32,000 nucleotides of DNA from Thermodesulfatator indicus DSM 15286 (GTDB lineage Bacteria > Desulfobacterota > Thermodesulfobacteria > Thermodesulfobacteriales > Thermodesulfatatoraceae), in contig NC_015681.1 in the NCBI RefSeq assembly GCF_000217795.1, positions 641,244 through 673,243 of the forward strand, read 5' to 3'. Shown piece by piece: positions 21,280 through 29,173 of the stretch. Under the pieces are notes generated by a model, which was not told the DNA's origin, did not search any database, and worked only from the letters and a program-made list of their open reading frames with translations. The translations under genes were made by a program, and so were the position numbers. How positions within the stretch are numbered: position 1 is the first letter of the stretch; each line of letters starts with the position of its first letter.

Positions 21280-21426
21280 TTGAAAAAATTTTTTAAGTTT
21301 GTTTTTTTATACTTTAAAAACAGCCCTTGGTATATGTGGGTAATACGTATCGGATTAGCTTTACTTTTATTTAAACTTTTTATGTGGTCTCAAAAGCTAG
21401 GTCAAATATCCAAAGGTGGGGGCTAA
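21280..21426 (+). CDS. Candidate 48-aa small membrane protein (below the ORF-track size cut-off)
   Basis: A TTG start lies 8 nt downstream of AAGGAG. The translation is (M)KKFFKFVFLYFKNSPWYMWVIRIGLALLLFKLFMWSQKLGQISKGGG, with one hydrophobic helix. Its stop lies in the loop of the downstream terminator hairpin. There is no homology evidence. Confidence 0.25.
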   Translation: MKKFFKFVFLYFKNSPWYMWVIRIGLALLLFKLFMWSQKLGQISKGGG

Positions 21427-21448
21427 AACCCCCACCATCTATTTTCTT
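21406..21448. terminator. Bidirectional rho-independent terminator between hpt (+) and the sulfur-relay operon (-)
   Basis: A perfect 8-bp GC-rich stem, GGTGGGGG (21415-21422) / CCCCCACC (21429-21436), has a 6-nt loop. It is followed by ATCTATTTTCTT on the plus strand and by TTTGGATATTT on the minus strand. Confidence 0.7.
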
Positions 21449-21626
21449 ACCACCAACTTATAGTCTTATCCGCCTCAAAGATTAATTGTATCAGTTTGTC
21501 ATAGTCCTGATCTTCTTTAGCTTCATAAAGTTTAAACTCAAGAGCTTCATTTCCTTCATTCAATATAGCTACCAACTTTTTTACTTCTTCGTTTGGTTCA
21601 GTTCTATATACATGGAGAATTTTCAT
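21447..21626 (-). CDS. Small conserved hypothetical protein, last gene of the YedE-TusA cluster
   Basis: The track ORF starts at 21632 (MHMKIL...), but that ATG is only 1 nt from AAGGAGG. The ATG at 21626 (MKILHVYRTEPNEEVKKLVAILNEGNEALEFKLYEAKEDQDYDKLIQLIFEADKTISWW) has 7-nt spacing. I recognise no named domain. Confidence 0.6.
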   Translation of the reverse strand: MKILHVYRTEPNEEVKKLVAILNEGNEALEFKLYEAKEDQDYDKLIQLIFEADKTISWW

Positions 21627-21645
21627 GTGCATACCTCCTTACCAA

Positions 21646-22014
21646 TTAATCAGCACAAGCTGGTGGTGGATCATGTTTTTGTTTAGGCAGGCCATATGGA
21701 ATAACAACATCAGCTTCTTTTAATTTTTGAGCCAGTTCTTCAAGGGTAATAGGTGTAAGGCCTGCTTCCTCGATATTGTATTTTTTAGCTTCTTCGTCTT
21801 CTATAGTATCCACTACACAATAAACTTCTCCTTCCATATCGCGAATCCACTCAATGTTTTCTTTTACGTAATCATTAAGCTTGGGCATTTTTTGGTAAAA
21901 AATGCAAGCATGAGAATAGTGATTCTCAATAGCCTGTCCTAAAGTTGATCGTATAGCATCGGTAATATAAATACGATTGGCTATCAAAAAATATATTTTC
22001 AAACTTTCACTCAT
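21646..22014 (-). CDS. Conserved hypothetical protein, possibly DsrE/F/H-fold, with C-terminal Pro-rich Cys tail
   Basis: 122-aa ORF with AAGGAGG 6 nt upstream. LKIYFLIAN ... EVYCVVDTIEDEEAKKYNI ... ADVVIPYG resembles the DsrF/DsrH strand-helix pattern. It ends in KHDPPPACAD. Confidence 0.65.
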   Translation of the reverse strand: MSESLKIYFLIANRIYITDAIRSTLGQAIENHYSHACIFYQKMPKLNDYVKENIEWIRDMEGEVYCVVDTIEDEEAKKYNIEEAGLTPITLEELAQKLKEADVVIPYGLPKQKHDPPPACAD

Positions 22015-22026
22015 AGTCGCCTCCTT

Positions 22027-22359
22027 TTAAAGGACTATATATTTACCACATTGAGAAAGAAGCTCCCCATGAAAGGCTTGGGTACGCATCTGTTTAGGGC
22101 TCATACCAGCGGGAATATCTGTATCTACATCAAAACCTTCACACACATAAGAATCTGCACAAATTGCCAGGTCTTCTTCGGGAACCATTTTTACTAACTT
22201 GGCAAATTCAGAATGTTTGGTAAGATGGATGGCCTTGAAGGTGAGAAATATTTTTACTTTTTTACCGGCTCTTTGAGCCGCTTCAACTATCTTCATTAAA
22301 TGGGTCATATATTGAGGATTAGTAACAAAAATCCCCAGCTTATCCGGATCTTTAGACAT
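22027..22359 (-). CDS. DsrE/DsrF-like sulfur-relay family protein
   Basis: 110-aa ORF with AAGGAGG upstream. KLGIFVTNP ... KVKIFLTFKAIHL ... LAICADSYVCEGFDV ... GKYIVL fits the DsrE/TusD-like fold pattern. The call is by motif recognition only. Confidence 0.65.
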   Translation of the reverse strand: MSKDPDKLGIFVTNPQYMTHLMKIVEAAQRAGKKVKIFLTFKAIHLTKHSEFAKLVKMVPEEDLAICADSYVCEGFDVDTDIPAGMSPKQMRTQAFHGELLSQCGKYIVL

Positions 22360-22382
22360 AAAAGCACCTCCTTTTTAGAAAA

Positions 22383-22643
22383 TTATCCGCCCTTTTTAAT
22401 ATAGAAGCGTATGAAACCAGCATCTTCTCTTTCGCCTAAATATTCGTGACCAGCTCTTTCGCACCATCCAGGAAGGTCATTTCTTGAGCCAGGGTCAGTA
22501 CCCAACACCTCTAATATCTGTCCTTTTTCCATCTTTTGGATAGCCTTTTTGGTCTTAAGCAAAGGCATAGGACAGGAAAGACCTTTACAATCTAAAGTAA
22601 CATCTGCTTTGATCCCTTCGGGAGCTACTTTTACATCAGCCAT
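22383..22643 (-). CDS. tusA: TusA/SirA-family sulfurtransferase
   Basis: 86-aa ORF with AAGGAGGAGG upstream. The conserved Cys motif DCKGLSCPMPLLKTKKAI and the two-layer alpha/beta length are typical of TusA. Confidence 0.85.
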   Translation of the reverse strand: MADVKVAPEGIKADVTLDCKGLSCPMPLLKTKKAIQKMEKGQILEVLGTDPGSRNDLPGWCERAGHEYLGEREDAGFIRFYIKKGG

Positions 22644-22681
22644 AATTCTTCCTCCTCCTTTATTTGGATTTATTTGTTTAT

Positions 22682-23848
22682 TTACATTTCTATTACAAAT
22701 TTATTTGAATCTTCATTCCAGTCGATAATTATATACCAGAGCACACAAATAAAAGTTATTAAGAATAAAGTCCCACCATAACCTAGATACTCTGGCATAA
22801 ATATAGCCTTACCTAAATAACCATTTTCTATTACTTCATATTCAGCGAAATAATGTCTTATAAGGGAGTTAGAAAGAGCAAAAAATATTACAACAACCCA
22901 AAGCTTTATCTGTCCTTCAGCTACTCTCCAGAGAGCTCCTGAACCACAACCACCTGCCACAACCATAGCTGCTCCAAAAATAAAACCTCCAAGTAAAGCT
23001 CCTAAACCAAAAGTAGGGGTTACATATACCATTTCTGGACGAATTTCTTGATATTTGAGAATAGAAACTCCAATAGCTCCCAATATAATACTAACCATTA
23101 CAGCTTTACCCATAGAAGCCTCACCAGTAACAAAGGGCTCTCTAAAACCGTTAACCATACAAAAACGGCTACGATGTATTACATATCCAATACCAGCTGT
23201 AATAATGAGACAACCACCTAAGATCTCACCATTATCCATATCGCTGTTAAAATAGGCATAAGTAGCAACTATTAAGCCTACAAATAGTAAAAACCCAATA
23301 TAAGGGCCAACTTTCTTGAAGCTTATTTCAAAACCACCTGAGCTGGGAAAACGTTCAAGCTCCCAGTAAAGATATTTAACACCTAAAATTACACCAAAAA
23401 CTAAACCTACCGCCATCAAAAATCCGTTGGCCGCAAGATTTTGAATAGCCACGTAGAAACCACCTACATTACATCCCATAGCCAGAGCCGAACCCAAACC
23501 CATCAGAATACCGGCTATAATAGCTTTTACGTATTCGATCTTGGGAGGAAAACGCAGACCAAATTCACGGGCAAAGAAGGCGGAAATGGCCGCCCCCCAT
23601 ATATAACCAATATTTAATACAGAAGACGAAAACTCTAGAGGATGTGGGGGGGCTTCATCATAAAAACCTATACCGTAAAAAAACCAGTCTGCCCAATTTC
23701 TTATACCACCTACAATCCCCCATGGGCGGTACCACATTTCTAAAAAAATAGCAAATAAGGCCAACAATATGCCGCCCATCATAGGAGACCAGGTACTCAC
23801 CGCGAAGGACCTCCAGCTTCTAGAAATGGCTTCTTTGAAGTCAGACAT
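22682..23848 (-). CDS. YedE/YeeE-family sulfur-compound transporter
   Basis: 388-aa polytopic membrane ORF with GGAGGGAGG upstream. It has three Cys in Gly-rich membrane motifs (LAMGCNVGG, RFCMVNG, AGGCGSGALW) and is encoded directly upstream of tusA. Confidence 0.85.
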   Translation of the reverse strand: MSDFKEAISRSWRSFAVSTWSPMMGGILLALFAIFLEMWYRPWGIVGGIRNWADWFFYGIGFYDEAPPHPLEFSSSVLNIGYIWGAAISAFFAREFGLRFPPKIEYVKAIIAGILMGLGSALAMGCNVGGFYVAIQNLAANGFLMAVGLVFGVILGVKYLYWELERFPSSGGFEISFKKVGPYIGFLLFVGLIVATYAYFNSDMDNGEILGGCLIITAGIGYVIHRSRFCMVNGFREPFVTGEASMGKAVMVSIILGAIGVSILKYQEIRPEMVYVTPTFGLGALLGGFIFGAAMVVAGGCGSGALWRVAEGQIKLWVVVIFFALSNSLIRHYFAEYEVIENGYLGKAIFMPEYLGYGGTLFLITFICVLWYIIIDWNEDSNKFVIEM

Positions 23849-24252
23849 ACATGACCTCCCTCCAAATTATATTTCTTTACTATAAAATACCAGGCTCTAA
23901 TGTTGCCTATCAAAACTGAATAAAACTGTCAAATTCTTTGAATATAGAAAAAACTATTTTAATCTCCGAAATAAAAAGTTTTTTTCTTTCTGTCTATGAT
24001 AATCTTGCCAAAAGGCAAAATGTGAAGTTTGTTTTAAAAAAACACAACTAAATTATTAATGTGAACATAGAAAAACAGATGACAATTTATGGACATTTTT
24101 ATTCGGTCATGGCAAGCGCTAAAGTGACGAAACAATCCCATAAGCTTACCGAGGCGGCTATGTCGCCTCGCGATAATATTTTGTTGTACAAAAACATCCG
24201 GCTCAATAGTTTGAGAAAATTTTAAGTTTTTGAGCAATTTAAGGGGTTTATT

Positions 24253-27028: not shown

Positions 27029-27334
27029 CTAGGGGTTATACATTTTAAAGGTTTCGTGTAAAGATTGAGCAATAGCTGAAAGGACAGCCAGCCATATAGC
27101 CAATTTGATACCGCTTTTTAAAGGAAAAGGTTGTTTTAAAAATTTGCGACAGATACCAGAAAACATGTAAGCCATAACACCACTATAAAAAAAGAAACTA
27201 AAAACCCACCTGAAAGACTCATAAATAGTTCTTTCGAGGTTTTCAGGATAATAGCGAATACTGAAAAGAATGCACAGAATAATTCCCGAAAAAAGGTATA
27301 TTTTTTCTTTTAAGGTAAAAGAGGGCCAATTCAT
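27029..27334 (-). CDS. Small hypothetical membrane protein (about 3 TM helices)
   Basis: 101-aa ORF whose start overlaps the DUF364 gene stop by 4 nt (ATGA). It has three hydrophobic segments (IYLFSGIILCILFSI, WVFSFFFYSGVMAYMFSGI, IKLAIWLAVLSAIA). I recognise no domain. Confidence 0.55.
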   Translation of the reverse strand: MNWPSFTLKEKIYLFSGIILCILFSIRYYPENLERTIYESFRWVFSFFFYSGVMAYMFSGICRKFLKQPFPLKSGIKLAIWLAVLSAIAQSLHETFKMYNP

Positions 27335-28095
27335 TCTAATCTTAAGTTTACTTTTTCCACGTAAGGTTTAAAAGCCTTGGTACCTTTTGCTTCACTTACC
27401 AGGGTTAAAATCTTTTCATCTTTTACTAGCAGGCCAGAAAGGATGGTTATCGGTGTATCCCTGAAGGCTTCGGGAAACAAAGGAGTGCTAGGCCCTAGAA
27501 GAATTACTTCTCGTGGTTTATGCAAATATTCAAAAATTTCTTCAAGGGTTTTATTTATAAGGGTAACCGAGGTAATTATAGCTACAGTGGCCTGGGGCAA
27601 AAGGTCAAACATATCACTTTCGCGAAGAGTTTCCGCGTGTCTAGCTGGATTTCTTTCAAATATCCATAGTTCCGCCACTTTATTTCTCAATTTTTGTGCC
27701 AGAGGTTCAAAATAACCCACCATAGCCACTCTATCTTCAGAAGTTATCGTGGCAAGTTTTAAAGGATCTCCCAAAAGATAGTCTTCTCTAGGATTATTCA
27801 AAATGGCATTTATAGTGGCTAACCCCACTCCCGCTTCTAACAGATTAGCCGAAAGGAAATACTTAGCCACTACGTCAGCAGGTTTCCCTGCAAAACTAAC
27901 TTCTGGCGGCAGTATATTACAACTCAGTTTTTCTTCTAAAATGGTATAGCCCAAACCTATTTGGCCGCTATCAAGCTTTACGGCTGTATAACCAAGACCG
28001 AGGCGCACGTCATCTATCATGCGTCCTCGGCCTTGGGAAAGGGCTTTTTCTAAAAGGCGTTCGTAAATATTCATCTTAGGATTTTTTAAGGCCAC
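27331..28095 (-). CDS. DUF364/DUF4213 (putative metal-chelation Rossmann-like) protein
   Basis: 254-aa ORF. VRLGLGYTAVKLDSGQIGLGYT ... VAMVGYFEPL ... AIITSVTLINKTL matches the DUF4213+DUF364 pattern as I remember it. The start is uncertain: GTG 28095 overlaps mrp by 20 nt, and an alternative ATG at 28074 sits just after the mrp stop. Confidence 0.7.
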   Translation of the reverse strand: MALKNPKMNIYERLLEKALSQGRGRMIDDVRLGLGYTAVKLDSGQIGLGYTILEEKLSCNILPPEVSFAGKPADVVAKYFLSANLLEAGVGLATINAILNNPREDYLLGDPLKLATITSEDRVAMVGYFEPLAQKLRNKVAELWIFERNPARHAETLRESDMFDLLPQATVAIITSVTLINKTLEEIFEYLHKPREVILLGPSTPLFPEAFRDTPITILSGLLVKDEKILTLVSEAKGTKAFKPYVEKVNLRLE

Positions 28096-29173
28096 AGCTT
28101 CCCATCTTCTCGAACTCTAGAGACTGAGTAGCTATTTTTTCAGCTATCTCTCCAAAGACTTTACCTAATTCACTTTCAGGATCAAGGGCTGCTGGTTTTC
28201 CAATTTCACCACTTTTGGAAAGATTTGGATCTAGTGGCACCTTGCCAAGCAAAGGTACTCTCAGATCTTTTGCTAGTTTCTCTCCTCCCCCTTCACCAAA
28301 AACAGGGATGACCTGCTCCTTACCATCTGGGCCTACTGTTTTGAGGTAGGACATGTTCTCTACAATACCAAAAATCCTGGTACCAAGTTCATTGAACATG
28401 TTTATGGAACGAACCACATCAGATAGCGCCACTTTTTGAGGCGTGGTAACAATGACCACTCCTCTTAAAGGGAAGACCTGAGCCACGGTTAAAGGTGCGT
28501 CACCAGTTCCAGGGGGTAGGTCAATTACTAAGAAATCAAGAACACCCCAGTCCACAGCTTCAGCAAGTTCTGAAAGGGCCCGATGTACCAAAGGACCACG
28601 CCAAATGATGGCCTGCCCTTCAGGAGCCAAAAATCCGAAGGACATGACTTTAATACCCCAGCGCTCAGGAGGTACCAAAAGATTATCTCTGGTAAAAGGT
28701 CTTTCACCTTGAAGTCCCATAAGCAAAGGGACATTGGGACCATAAATATCAGCGTCAAGGATTCCCACTTTATAGCCTTTTTTAGCAAGAGCCACCGCCA
28801 GGTTCACAGACACCGTGGTCTTACCTACTCCACCTTTACCACTGGCCACGGCAATAATATGTCTTATGTCTTTTAAGGCCTTTTTCTCAGGAACTTTCTT
28901 TTTACCGAGAATTTTTTCACGTTCTTCAGGGGTCATAGTAGTCAGTTCAACATCTACTTCTTTTACCCCTGGAACTTCAGAAACAGCTTTTTTGACATCA
29001 CCAGCAATACGACCTTTCATAGGGCAGCCGGCTATAGTTAAAGCCACTACTACCTTTACCTTGTCACCATCAATTTTTACATCTCGAATCATTCCCAAAT
29101 CTACCAGACTACGGCCAAGCTCGGGATCTTTAACCTTTTTGAGAACCTCCATTATCTCTTCACGCGTTGGCAT
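28076..29173 (-). CDS. mrp: Mrp/ApbC/NBP35-family Fe-S cluster carrier ATPase with N-terminal DUF59 (MIP18) domain
   Basis: 365-aa ORF with AGGAGG upstream. It has a DUF59-like N-terminus (VLKKVKDPELGRSLVDLGMIRDV), the deviant Walker A VASGKGGVGKTTVS, and DLPPGTGD. Confidence 0.9.
   Translation of the reverse strand: MPTREEIMEVLKKVKDPELGRSLVDLGMIRDVKIDGDKVKVVVALTIAGCPMKGRIAGDVKKAVSEVPGVKEVDVELTTMTPEEREKILGKKKVPEKKALKDIRHIIAVASGKGGVGKTTVSVNLAVALAKKGYKVGILDADIYGPNVPLLMGLQGERPFTRDNLLVPPERWGIKVMSFGFLAPEGQAIIWRGPLVHRALSELAEAVDWGVLDFLVIDLPPGTGDAPLTVAQVFPLRGVVIVTTPQKVALSDVVRSINMFNELGTRIFGIVENMSYLKTVGPDGKEQVIPVFGEGGGEKLAKDLRVPLLGKVPLDPNLSKSGEIGKPAALDPESELGKVFGEIAEKIATQSLEFEKMGSCGLKKS

Follow-up and report, generated by a model that had tools for sequence, protein, structure and literature searches.

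A five-gene YedE-TusA-DsrEFH type II operon of Thermodesulfatator indicus and its probable part in a sulfur relay to the Dsr pathway

Thermodesulfatator indicus DSM 15286 is described as unable to use elemental sulfur (S0), thiosulfate or sulfite as electron acceptors or to disproportionate them (PMC9676032 for disproportionation), so that no tested phenotype of this bacterium needs the compact sulfur-relay operon present in its genome. What, then, might the operon do? We analysed it within a 32,000-nucleotide stretch of that genome (the window, to which all positions below refer), where the sequences of its five proteins agree exactly with those of Thein_0621-0625. Public records name the three small proteins among them 'hypothetical' or 'Peroxiredoxin', and an annotation update of the Thein_0621-0623 records would be useful.

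The order yedE-related, tusA, dsrE-like, chp, chp was named the YTD cluster by Umezawa 2020 and proposed there as a marker of disproportionation, as cited in three later papers (PMC9751629, PMC9676032, PMC13293266); going by these citing papers, the preliminary description of the locus gave both the name and the marker proposal correctly. The window operon conforms to the YTD definition, with adjacent genes in exactly this order. Allioux 2022 reports the cluster in T. indicus itself (PMC9676032), and Supplementary Table S5 of Plum-Jensen et al. (ISME J 2026; PMC13293266) lists strain DSM 15286 under 'YeeE-TusA-DsrEFH type II'. In that study, the DsrE-like, CHP and CHP homologues were purified together, in a 1:1:1 complex. 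This DsrEFH type II heterotrimer moves sulfur in vitro from TusA to Cys67 of DsrE and on to DsrC, a result obtained with proteins of Electronema aureum GS only (PMC13293266). Given this biochemistry, the preliminary statement that no product of such a cluster had been characterised mechanistically is out of date, and the label of least understood module in the window no longer applies. Earlier publications thus cover the locus, the name it bears, the biochemistry assigned to it and the fact that it fails to mark disproportionation, and nothing is new at that level. The present additions are small, namely a subfamily marked by Cys73 and Cys120, to which the window operon belongs, and the retention of the three YeeE cysteines in the YedE-like protein.

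Operon layout, transcription signals and synteny

The open reading frame list places five co-directional genes on the minus strand, coding for proteins of 388, 86, 110, 122 and 59-61 aa and separated by spacers of 38, 23, 12 and 13 nt. GGAGG precedes all five starts; counted over both strands, the 32-kb window has 62 copies of the motif, and since only about 0.016 occurrences are expected per 16-nt upstream stretch, its presence at 5/5 starts is not a matter of chance. Upstream of the operon lies an intergenic region of 404 bp (23849-24252) with 31.2% GC, against 41.3% for the window. The tight, self-contained five-gene set with its 12-38 nt spacers, the Shine-Dalgarno sequence for each gene and the 404-bp AT-rich upstream region of the preliminary description are all borne out by these measurements.

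Within the upstream region, we identified a candidate sigma-70 promoter on the minus strand (23904..23932), consisting of TTGACA, a 17-nt spacer with an extended -10 TG, and TAGGCA, about 55-85 nt 5' of the yedE-like ATG. When seven upstream regions from Thermodesulfatator and Thermosulfurimonas relatives were aligned, the blocks TTTGACA and TTTTGnTA proved invariant in 7/7, between diverged flanks. The sigma-70 scan found six sites against 10.1 expected from shuffles, that is, no enrichment, so the promoter proposal depends on cross-species conservation and not on the scan. Rfam models, run over the entire window with gathering thresholds, matched neither a riboswitch nor any other RNA element within the 404-bp leader. 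At the other end of the operon, a GC-rich hairpin (21415..21436, not assigned to one strand) also serves the convergent hpt-like gene. It has the form GGTGGGGG-N6-CCCCCACC and folds at -19.4 kcal/mol when read on the minus strand and at -18 kcal/mol on the plus, with a z-score of about -3.9 (0/200 shuffles equally stable). Its T-tract satisfies the scan criterion on the plus strand only, which makes the earlier wording, "strong bidirectional terminator", slightly generous. We propose that transcription of the operon would start from the candidate TTGACA-N17-TAGGCA promoter and end at the GC hairpin. The neighbours are housekeeping genes (homoserine dehydrogenase, hpt and an M16 peptidase), and no dsr genes were found in the 32-kb window, so the link to DsrC and DsrAB discussed below draws no support from the local context.

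The gene order was compared across 80 related genome loci, including Desulfocapsa, Desulfurivibrio and Desulfobulbaceae, the groups where the cluster was defined and tested. Essentially every locus that is not truncated preserves the TusA-DsrE-CHP1-CHP2 order, with CHP2 always after CHP1, and the full five-gene order is found in 49/80; most of the others are contig-truncated or have a divergent yedE. The co-occurrence of the two small ORFs with TusA and YedE, for which the preliminary description had suggested a synteny comparison, thus extends across genomes.

Protein components and their relation to known DsrEFH systems

The first gene (22682..23848, minus strand; Thein_0625, AEH44506) codes for the 388-aa YedE/YeeE-like membrane protein, which matches Pfam Sulf_transp with an E-value of 6e-48. 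The three cysteine motifs pointed out earlier are all present, as C126 (AMGCNVGG), C230 (RFCMVNG) and C301 (AGGCGSG), and these residues are conserved at every related locus with a readable position. Alignment to Spirochaeta thermophila YeeE (TsuA, 6LEO; E=2.6e-19) indicates a shared Sulf_transp fold at low identity, in which the pore cysteines C22, C91 and C293 of YeeE correspond to C230, C301 and C126 of Thein_0625; all three essential YeeE cysteines are thus kept. The two homologous halves are swapped relative to StYeeE and collinear with the YedE/FdhT-type model. Like Thein_0625, YeeE has a TusA-family partner, seen in the YeeE-YeeD complex (8J4C). The 388-aa protein remains under the cut-off for every NCBIfam subfamily, both for the TsuA/YeeE models (NF041049, 85.5 bits vs 645; NF052577, 101.5 vs 400) and for the YedE/FdhT selenium models (NF033796, 115.8 bits vs 350; TIGR04112, 44.7 vs 200), and we regard it as a putative sulfur-compound channel. 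In five relatives, the Cys301 codon is replaced by TGA (selenocysteine), which marks Cys301 as a reactive residue. The candidate SECIS hairpin of these TGA relatives (z=-1.2, no covariation) is not statistically exceptional alone, and it is accepted only when taken with the alignment of TGA to Cys and with a published selenoprotein family, GUxSG.

The second gene (22383..22643, minus strand; Thein_0624) codes for an 86-aa TusA-family sulfur carrier, with a Pfam TusA (PF01206) match of 5.7e-27 and 93.8 bits, against a cut-off of 28.6. It scores 64.4 bits on the E. coli TusA equivalog NF001423, under the cut-off of 78. Its active-site Cys24 lies in LSCPMP, a Cys-Pro-x-Pro motif already noted in the preliminary description, and is conserved in 77/78 homologues.

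For the three small proteins, homology is harder to trace. Pfam searches, suggested at the outset for all five proteins, recovered Sulf_transp and TusA, left the 110-aa protein with a sub-threshold match to DsrE (PF02635; E=0.034, 14.7 bits vs a cut-off of 22.7), and returned no family, DsrH (PF04077) included, for the 122-aa and 59-aa proteins. The 110-aa protein (22027..22359, minus strand; Thein_0623) is assigned to DsrE type II through the conservation of the active-site Cys67 and the published carrier listing: I66-C67 is invariant in an alignment of 38 sequences, and C67 is present in 78/78 homologues. Against PDB sequences, its profile gave a weak match to the DsrE-like protein 2qs7 (E=0.28).

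The 122-aa protein (21646..22014, minus strand; Thein_0622, 'CHP1') corresponds to DsrF type II. Its AlphaFold2 model has a pLDDT of 93.5; in the C-terminal tail LPKQKHDPPPACAD, which is flexible and bears Cys120, the value drops first to 74 and then to 59. The top four Foldseek matches of this model in the PDB are all DsrE/DsrF-like (3mc3, 3pnx chains A and B, and 2fb6), with 3mc3 reaching E=7e-4, a probability of 1.00 and a TM-score of 0.59-0.60, and the protein therefore models as a DsrE/DsrF fold.

The last gene, putatively dsrH type II ('CHP2'; 21447..21626, minus strand), codes for 59 aa, or 61 aa if read from 21632. Since GGAGG abuts the first ATG, the second (21626) is the likely start, which agrees with the annotation of Thein_0621, to which the product is 100% identical. 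In T. indicus, this protein has no cysteine. Its AlphaFold2 model (pLDDT 96.2) shows a beta-alpha-beta-alpha-beta fold, for which Foldseek returned only generic Rossmann-like fragments. An exhaustive HMMER search gave a family of 226 representatives. Lengths were listed for 150 of them and fall almost without exception at 54-61 aa; among these 150, no bridge to the canonical DsrH of about 100 aa was seen. The few longer matches looked like fusions, mis-assemblies or mis-called starts and were of no help: one runs on into cysteinyl-tRNA-ligase C-terminal domains (P0115), one has only sub-threshold TPR matches (P0227), and one has no Pfam domain (P0133).

When the DsrE-II, DsrF-II and DsrH-II profiles were compared with all PDB sequences, no DsrEFH or TusBCD chains were found, which fits the published identity of <25-30% yet gives no independent support. 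As a check of paralogy like that among the type I subunits, hhalign gave no match between DsrE and DsrF or between DsrF and DsrH, and a weak one between DsrE and DsrH (E=6e-4, probability 28%) that covers the N-terminal 67 residues of DsrE.

In the canonical DsrEFH type I of Allochromatium vinosum (2HY5) and in E. coli TusBCD, sulfur passes from TusA to DsrC or TusE. These complexes consist of three DsrE-fold subunits, of which E (or D) provides the single active Cys, and the T. indicus complex would probably share this plan. At the sequence level, however, no relationship to the T. indicus proteins is detectable (E=0.034 for DsrE; no match for DsrH or for the PDB profiles), and neither DsrE (PF02635) nor DsrH (PF04077), the Pfam hallmarks of type I and TusBCD, is found above threshold. 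The T. indicus DsrH subunit is also about half the type I size, and type II, unlike type I, co-occurs with reductive and not oxidative dsrAB (PMC13293266).

With DsrEFH type II as described by Plum-Jensen 2026, the window operon shares the same five components and an identical tusA-dsrE-dsrF-dsrH order, the three syntenic small genes lying directly 3' of tusA. Cys67 of DsrE has the same number and the same IC-x-SY context, the subunit sizes match (about 110, 100-120 and 57-59 aa), and the sum of 110, 122 and 59 aa amounts to about 33 kDa, the reported mass of the heterotrimer. Several features nevertheless set T. indicus apart. The yedE gene runs in the same direction as the other four and is apparently transcribed with them; in Desulfobulbales-type loci it is divergent. 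DsrE has further conserved cysteines that are specific to the subfamily, Cys73 (where the Desulfobulbales type has Lys) and Cys104. DsrF is longer by some 10 aa through an internal insert and ends in a PPPxC tail with Cys120, features not found in the Desulfobulbales type, and DsrH ends in TISWW instead of TICWW. The host is also a strict H2-oxidising sulfate reducer, and not a sulfide oxidiser.

Across the 80 loci, Cys73, six residues past Cys67 (IC67-ADSYx-C73-EG), is present in 66 DsrE homologues in addition to that of the window, and the flexible PPPxC tail of DsrF in 67 loci besides the window's own. The 13 Desulfobulbales-type loci have neither Cys73 (K or N there) nor the DsrF tail, and this Desulfobulbales or cable-bacteria type is the form tested in vitro (PMC13293266). 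With two extra conserved cysteines relative to the tested cable-bacterial complex, mechanistic details may differ in T. indicus. In the manner of DsrC, the tail of DsrF could serve as a swinging arm that might shuttle sulfur at the active site of DsrE or resolve it there, perhaps through a Cys67-S(n)-Cys120 or Cys73 bridge; if true, such a tail or bridge would alter the direction, chain length or acceptor of the transfer. That the operon represents a mechanistically distinct DsrEFH type II subfamily is a doubtful proposition.

Proposed role and competing explanations

The best explanation, which we hold to be highly likely, is a YedE-TusA-DsrEFH type II sulfur relay feeding the Dsr pathway. 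By homology to YeeE, the YedE-like channel would pass thiosulfate or polysulfide/sulfane sulfur through the cytoplasmic membrane by way of its pore cysteines C126, C230 and C301. Cys24 of TusA would then accept the sulfane sulfur as a persulfide and, by analogy with the in vitro transfer of the Electronema aureum homologues, hand it to Cys67 of DsrE in a DsrE-DsrF-DsrH complex of about 33 kDa. As seen in vitro for homologues, this complex would load DsrC, which is the substrate/product carrier for the dissimilatory sulfite reductase DsrAB; as T. indicus is a sulfate reducer, dsrC and dsrAB are expected elsewhere in the genome. In this way, the relay would link the Dsr pathway to sulfur that is external or zero-valent.

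The reading of Umezawa, with the cluster as a module dedicated to the disproportionation of S0, thiosulfate or sulfite and as its genomic marker, seems unlikely. All five YTD proteins of Desulfolithobacter dissulfuricans are more abundant in thiosulfate disproportionation (PMC9751629), as is TusA in Dissulfuribacter thermophilus, and many relatives carrying the cluster are disproportionators (Thermosulfurimonas, Caldimicrobium thiodismutans, Desulfocapsa). However, the cluster YedE of Dissulfuribacter thermophilus is less abundant in disproportionation, and T. indicus has an intact cluster, yet could not be grown by disproportionation of S0, thiosulfate or sulfite (PMC9676032). Only 25/63 cultured disproportionators have the cluster, and 35/46 of the carriers in culture reduce sulfate or sulfite, no correlation with substrate being seen (PMC13293266). 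Judged by its own refuting condition, the link to a disproportionating lifestyle drawn in the preliminary description founders on the non-disproportionating T. indicus and on the 25/63 count, and the YTD cluster as a universal disproportionation marker was already refuted.

A further reading directs the sulfur to assimilation or biosynthesis, with YeeE/YeeD-like thiosulfate uptake serving a TusBCD-like complex and, through it, tRNA 2-thiouridine, molybdenum cofactor or cysteine instead of Dsr; we consider this very unlikely. Structures related to the membrane protein have been solved for a pair that takes up thiosulfate, YeeE(TsuA)-YeeD(TsuB), and the position of the operon among housekeeping genes and not dsr genes was counted in its favour. 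DsrEFH is homologous to E. coli TusBCD, and TusBCD works together with TusA in tRNA thiolation, a homology that was counted on the same side. The membrane protein lies far under the TsuA cut-offs, however (85 and 101 bits vs 645 and 400), and homologous TusA, DsrEFH-II and DsrC are not persulfidated by thiosulfate in vitro (PMC13293266). The DsrEFH type II family is moreover largely confined to organisms with dsrAB, 73.9% of the reductive type, and the homologous complex gives its sulfur to DsrC (PMC13293266). A selenium-handling module of the YedE/YedF type is hardly credible, even though selen_YedE_FdhT gives the membrane protein its best NCBIfam match, with collinearity from residue 68 to 380, and the TusA-like protein also matches YedF models. 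The selenium-model scores are far under their cut-offs (115.8 bits vs 350; 49.6 vs 79), the TusA-like protein scores higher on TusA than on YedF, there is no selD or selA context within the 32-kb window, and the partners are probably DsrE-fold proteins, of a kind whose sulfur transfer is experimentally supported (PMC13293266). Curated cut-offs and the published in vitro data (PMC13293266) thus led us to reject both the selenium and the assimilatory readings.

As a sulfur relay to the Dsr pathway, the operon would most plausibly let an organism with a 'reductive-type' DsrAB oxidise sulfane sulfur to sulfite. A wider question of current interest concerns some 20% of 'sulfate reducers', which might be able to reverse the Dsr pathway as well and oxidise sulfur (PMC13293266). 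T. indicus, as a cultured, strictly H2-dependent sulfate reducer with a closed genome and an intact, well-signalled operon, offers a clean test organism.

Layout and upstream region of the operon

The operon is a known system, and the T. indicus locus itself is already in the literature. ORF coordinates confirm the placing of its five minus-strand genes in the preliminary description: they encode a YedE-like membrane protein (388 aa, 23848-22682), a TusA-family protein (86 aa, 22643-22383), a DsrE-like protein (110 aa, 22359-22027), and two conserved hypothetical proteins, CHP1 (122 aa, 22014-21646) and CHP2 (61 aa, 21632-21447). The short spacers (12-38 nt) and individual Shine-Dalgarno sequences noted there are borne out by measured gaps of 38, 23, 12, and 13 nt and by a GGAGG upstream of all five starts, a motif found 62 times in the window on both strands. 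In the CHP2 gene this GGAGG directly abuts the first ATG, so translation probably begins at the second one, at 21626, giving a product of 59 aa, which is also the annotated length of the identical database protein.

The AT-rich region upstream of the yedE-like gene is, as described, exactly 404 bp long (31% GC versus 41% for the window). In this leader, TTTGACA and TTTTGnTA blocks are invariant in seven Thermodesulfatator/Thermosulfurimonas relatives, with diverged flanks; from this cross-species conservation we infer a candidate operon promoter, TTGACA-N17-TAGGCA with an extended -10 TG (23932-23904, minus strand). The same divergent intergenic region carries a perfect 7-bp inverted repeat, CGAGGCG-N7-CGCCTCG (24150-24170), which lies upstream of both the M16 peptidase start (by about 80 nt) and yedE (by about 300 nt) and may serve as an operator or form an RNA hairpin. 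Searches for Rfam elements in the window returned none. Downstream, the hairpin GGTGGGGG-N6-CCCCCACC (21415-21436) was previously read as a strong bidirectional terminator. Its fold is stable on both strands (-19.4 kcal/mol for the minus and -18 kcal/mol for the plus strand, z about -3.9), but its T-tract passes the terminator-scan criterion on the plus strand only.

This hairpin is common to the operon and to the convergent homoserine dehydrogenase and phosphoribosyltransferase genes on the downstream flank, while the upstream flank is a divergent M16 peptidase gene. The other genes in the window encode an ABC/FtsX transporter, a class II (D/K/N-type) aminoacyl-tRNA synthetase, UvrD-like helicases, a LysR regulator, RecG, an NfeD protein, a radical SAM protein, and, unrelated to the operon, a DUF364/DUF4213 protein ('putative heavy-metal chelation') whose gene adjoins that of an Mrp/NUBPL-type Fe-S cluster carrier ATPase (27331-29173, minus strand). 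No dsr, apr, sat, or qmo genes lie within the 32-kb window.

Published counterparts and synteny

The name 'YTD gene cluster' (Umezawa et al.), given in the preliminary description, is correct and is cited in several papers. Its proposed use as a marker of disproportionation does not stand: the cluster was found in T. indicus DSM 15286, which could not be grown by disproportionation of thiosulfate, sulfite, or S0, so that the organism of the window is itself the published counter-example, and Allioux et al. (2022; PMC9676032) considered the cluster unlikely to be a universal marker. The proteins have since been renamed DsrEFH type II and occur in 985 genomes from 20 phyla, 74% of them with reductive dsrAB, with only 25 of 63 cultured disproportionators carrying them (PMC13293266). 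The claim that no product had been characterized mechanistically is likewise outdated by the in vitro work of Plum-Jensen et al. (2026; PMC13293266) on the Electronema aureum GS homologues. There, the three small proteins (DsrE-like and both CHPs) were purified together at 1:1:1, forming a heterotrimer of about 33 kDa; persulfidated TusA transfers sulfur specifically to Cys67 of DsrE (abolished by C67S), and the complex gives sulfur to DsrC in one direction only, thiosulfate not being a direct donor. Overall, the original observation is upheld and its interpretation partly supported.

A scan of a genome collection with the 122-aa family yielded 80 loci, whose ORFs were searched with the five window proteins. 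Apart from loci truncated at a contig end, essentially all keep the TusA-DsrE-CHP1-CHP2 order; YedE lies upstream in the same direction in 55 loci, and in Desulfobulbales-type loci it is divergent or distal. Represented among the loci are Desulfocapsa, Desulfurivibrio, and Desulfobulbaceae, from which the definition and the tests of the cluster come. In a check proposed in the preliminary description, the two small ORFs thus co-occur with YedE and TusA elsewhere, and so are genuine genes belonging to a single module. In Thermodesulfatator autotrophicus S606, an intact YedE-like gene for 388 aa (L001:4162-5328) directly precedes tusA; Suppl. Table S5 of PMC13293266 gives this strain as 'TusA-DsrEFH type II', without YeeE, apparently a minor oversight.

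Assignment of the five products

All five proteins match T. indicus DSM 15286 entries exactly (AEH44506 to AEH44502, 2.32-Mb chromosome); the small proteins are Thein_0621-0623 by record names, and Thein_0624 (TusA) and Thein_0625 (YedE-like) were assigned by consecutive accession numbers. Public annotation of the DsrEFH type II subunits (21447-22359; AEH44502-04; UniRef F8ABQ0-Q2) is stale or wrong: all three are still named 'hypothetical protein' at NCBI, and UniProt calls the 110-aa DsrE-like protein 'Peroxiredoxin'. UniRef labels the TusA of T. autotrophicus 'Preprotein translocase subunit TatC'.

The 86-aa protein belongs to the TusA family (Pfam, 6e-27), and its Cys24 is kept in 77 of 78 homologues. 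The 110-aa protein matches Pfam DsrE weakly (E=0.034, under the gathering score), with Cys67 invariant in 38/38 aligned sequences and 78/78 homologues. Neither the 122-aa nor the 59-aa protein matched a Pfam or NCBIfam family. The predicted structure of the former (pLDDT 93.5) has four top PDB matches, all DsrE/DsrF-like (3mc3, E=7e-4, TM 0.6). That of the latter (pLDDT 96.2) is a beta-alpha-beta-alpha-beta unit for which Foldseek returned generic Rossmann-like fragments only. Its family (226 cluster representatives, nearly all of those listed being stand-alone and 54-61 aa long) aligns weakly with the first 67 residues of DsrE type II (E=6e-4, probability 28%), the alignment stopping exactly at the Cys67 position. 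The DsrH-like assignment is putative and draws on 51-65% identity and the same synteny with Desulfobulbales proteins, together with published work. Profiles of all three small families matched no DsrEFH or TusBCD chains among PDB sequences, in keeping with reported identities of less than 25-30%.

In an alignment of the 59-aa family, the C-terminus of DsrH type II (21447-21464) reads TISWW in the window clade and TICWW in Desulfobulbales-type loci, the variable position aligning with the DsrE active-site Cys67 in the weak hhalign match. In a metagenomic protein of 131 aa (P0133), an N-terminal segment bearing a DsrF-like RSSLG motif is followed by a complete C-terminal DsrH type II domain; this is either a fusion of DsrF and DsrH that exists in nature or an artefact of assembly or of a frameshift.

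The 388-aa protein belongs to the Sulf_transp (YeeE/YedE) family (Pfam, 6e-48) and scores under the curated NCBIfam cut-offs of all named subfamilies (YedE/FdhT, 116 bits versus 350; TsuA models, 85-101 bits versus 400-645). Among solved structures it matches Spirochaeta thermophila YeeE (StYeeE; 6LEO, E=2.6e-19) with homologous halves swapped: residues 216-326 correspond to StYeeE 8-116 and residues 70-152 to StYeeE 237-319. Unlike StYeeE, the YedE/FdhT model is collinear with the protein. C230, C301, and C126 align with StYeeE C22, C91, and C293, the three pore cysteines that function in that channel according to the YeeE structural work.

Conserved cysteines and a possible sulfur relay

The quoted cysteine motifs are present in the sequences, and conservation among relatives adds two slightly new points. 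In five loci (L003:5056-5058, L004:5057-5059, L005:5056-5058, L006:5057-5059, and L011:3096-3098), all Thermodesulfatator atlanticus-like or Thermodesulfobacteriales MAGs, an in-frame TGA replaces the codon aligned with Cys301 (about 22946-22948, minus strand; AGG-C/U-GSG). Located 11 nt downstream is a 9-bp hairpin with GGU in its loop; it is built with synonymous codons other than those of the window, and by itself it is statistically unremarkable. The sequences probably represent a selenocysteine variant; they fit the already catalogued family of predicted selenoproteins 'YeeE/YedE, motif GUxSG' (PMC13188914), marking Cys301 as a reactive residue.

The second point is a division of the relatives into two cysteine groups. 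DsrE Cys73 (22141-22143; IC67ADSYxC73EG) is present in 66 loci and the window, and a DsrF C-terminal PPPxC tail with Cys120 (21655-21657) in 67 loci and the window; in the 13 loci of the Desulfobulbales type, to which the proteins studied in vitro belong, DsrE position 73 is K or N and the tail is missing. The two features co-occur perfectly among related loci, and as these 13 loci probably form one clade, the split may go back to a single event in evolution. The pLDDT drops to 59-74 in the tail, which is probably flexible, and Cys120 may be a swinging-arm cysteine. PMC13293266 mentions neither Cys73 nor the Cys120 tail in its main text or in the supplements consulted.

By analogy with YeeE, the YedE-like channel would pass sulfur species across the membrane via C126, C230, and C301, and TusA would then be persulfidated on Cys24. 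As demonstrated for the homologues, sulfur could move from TusA to DsrE Cys67 in the DsrEFH type II trimer and on to DsrC, which would deliver it to DsrAB. The direction in T. indicus could be sulfane-sulfur oxidation by reversed Dsr, as Plum-Jensen et al. (PMC13293266) proposed for DsrEFH type II carriers generally; alternatively, zero-valent sulfur could be handled in some other way. What remains of interest is the physiological role of the operon in a non-disproportionating sulfate reducer, together with its subfamily-specific cysteines.
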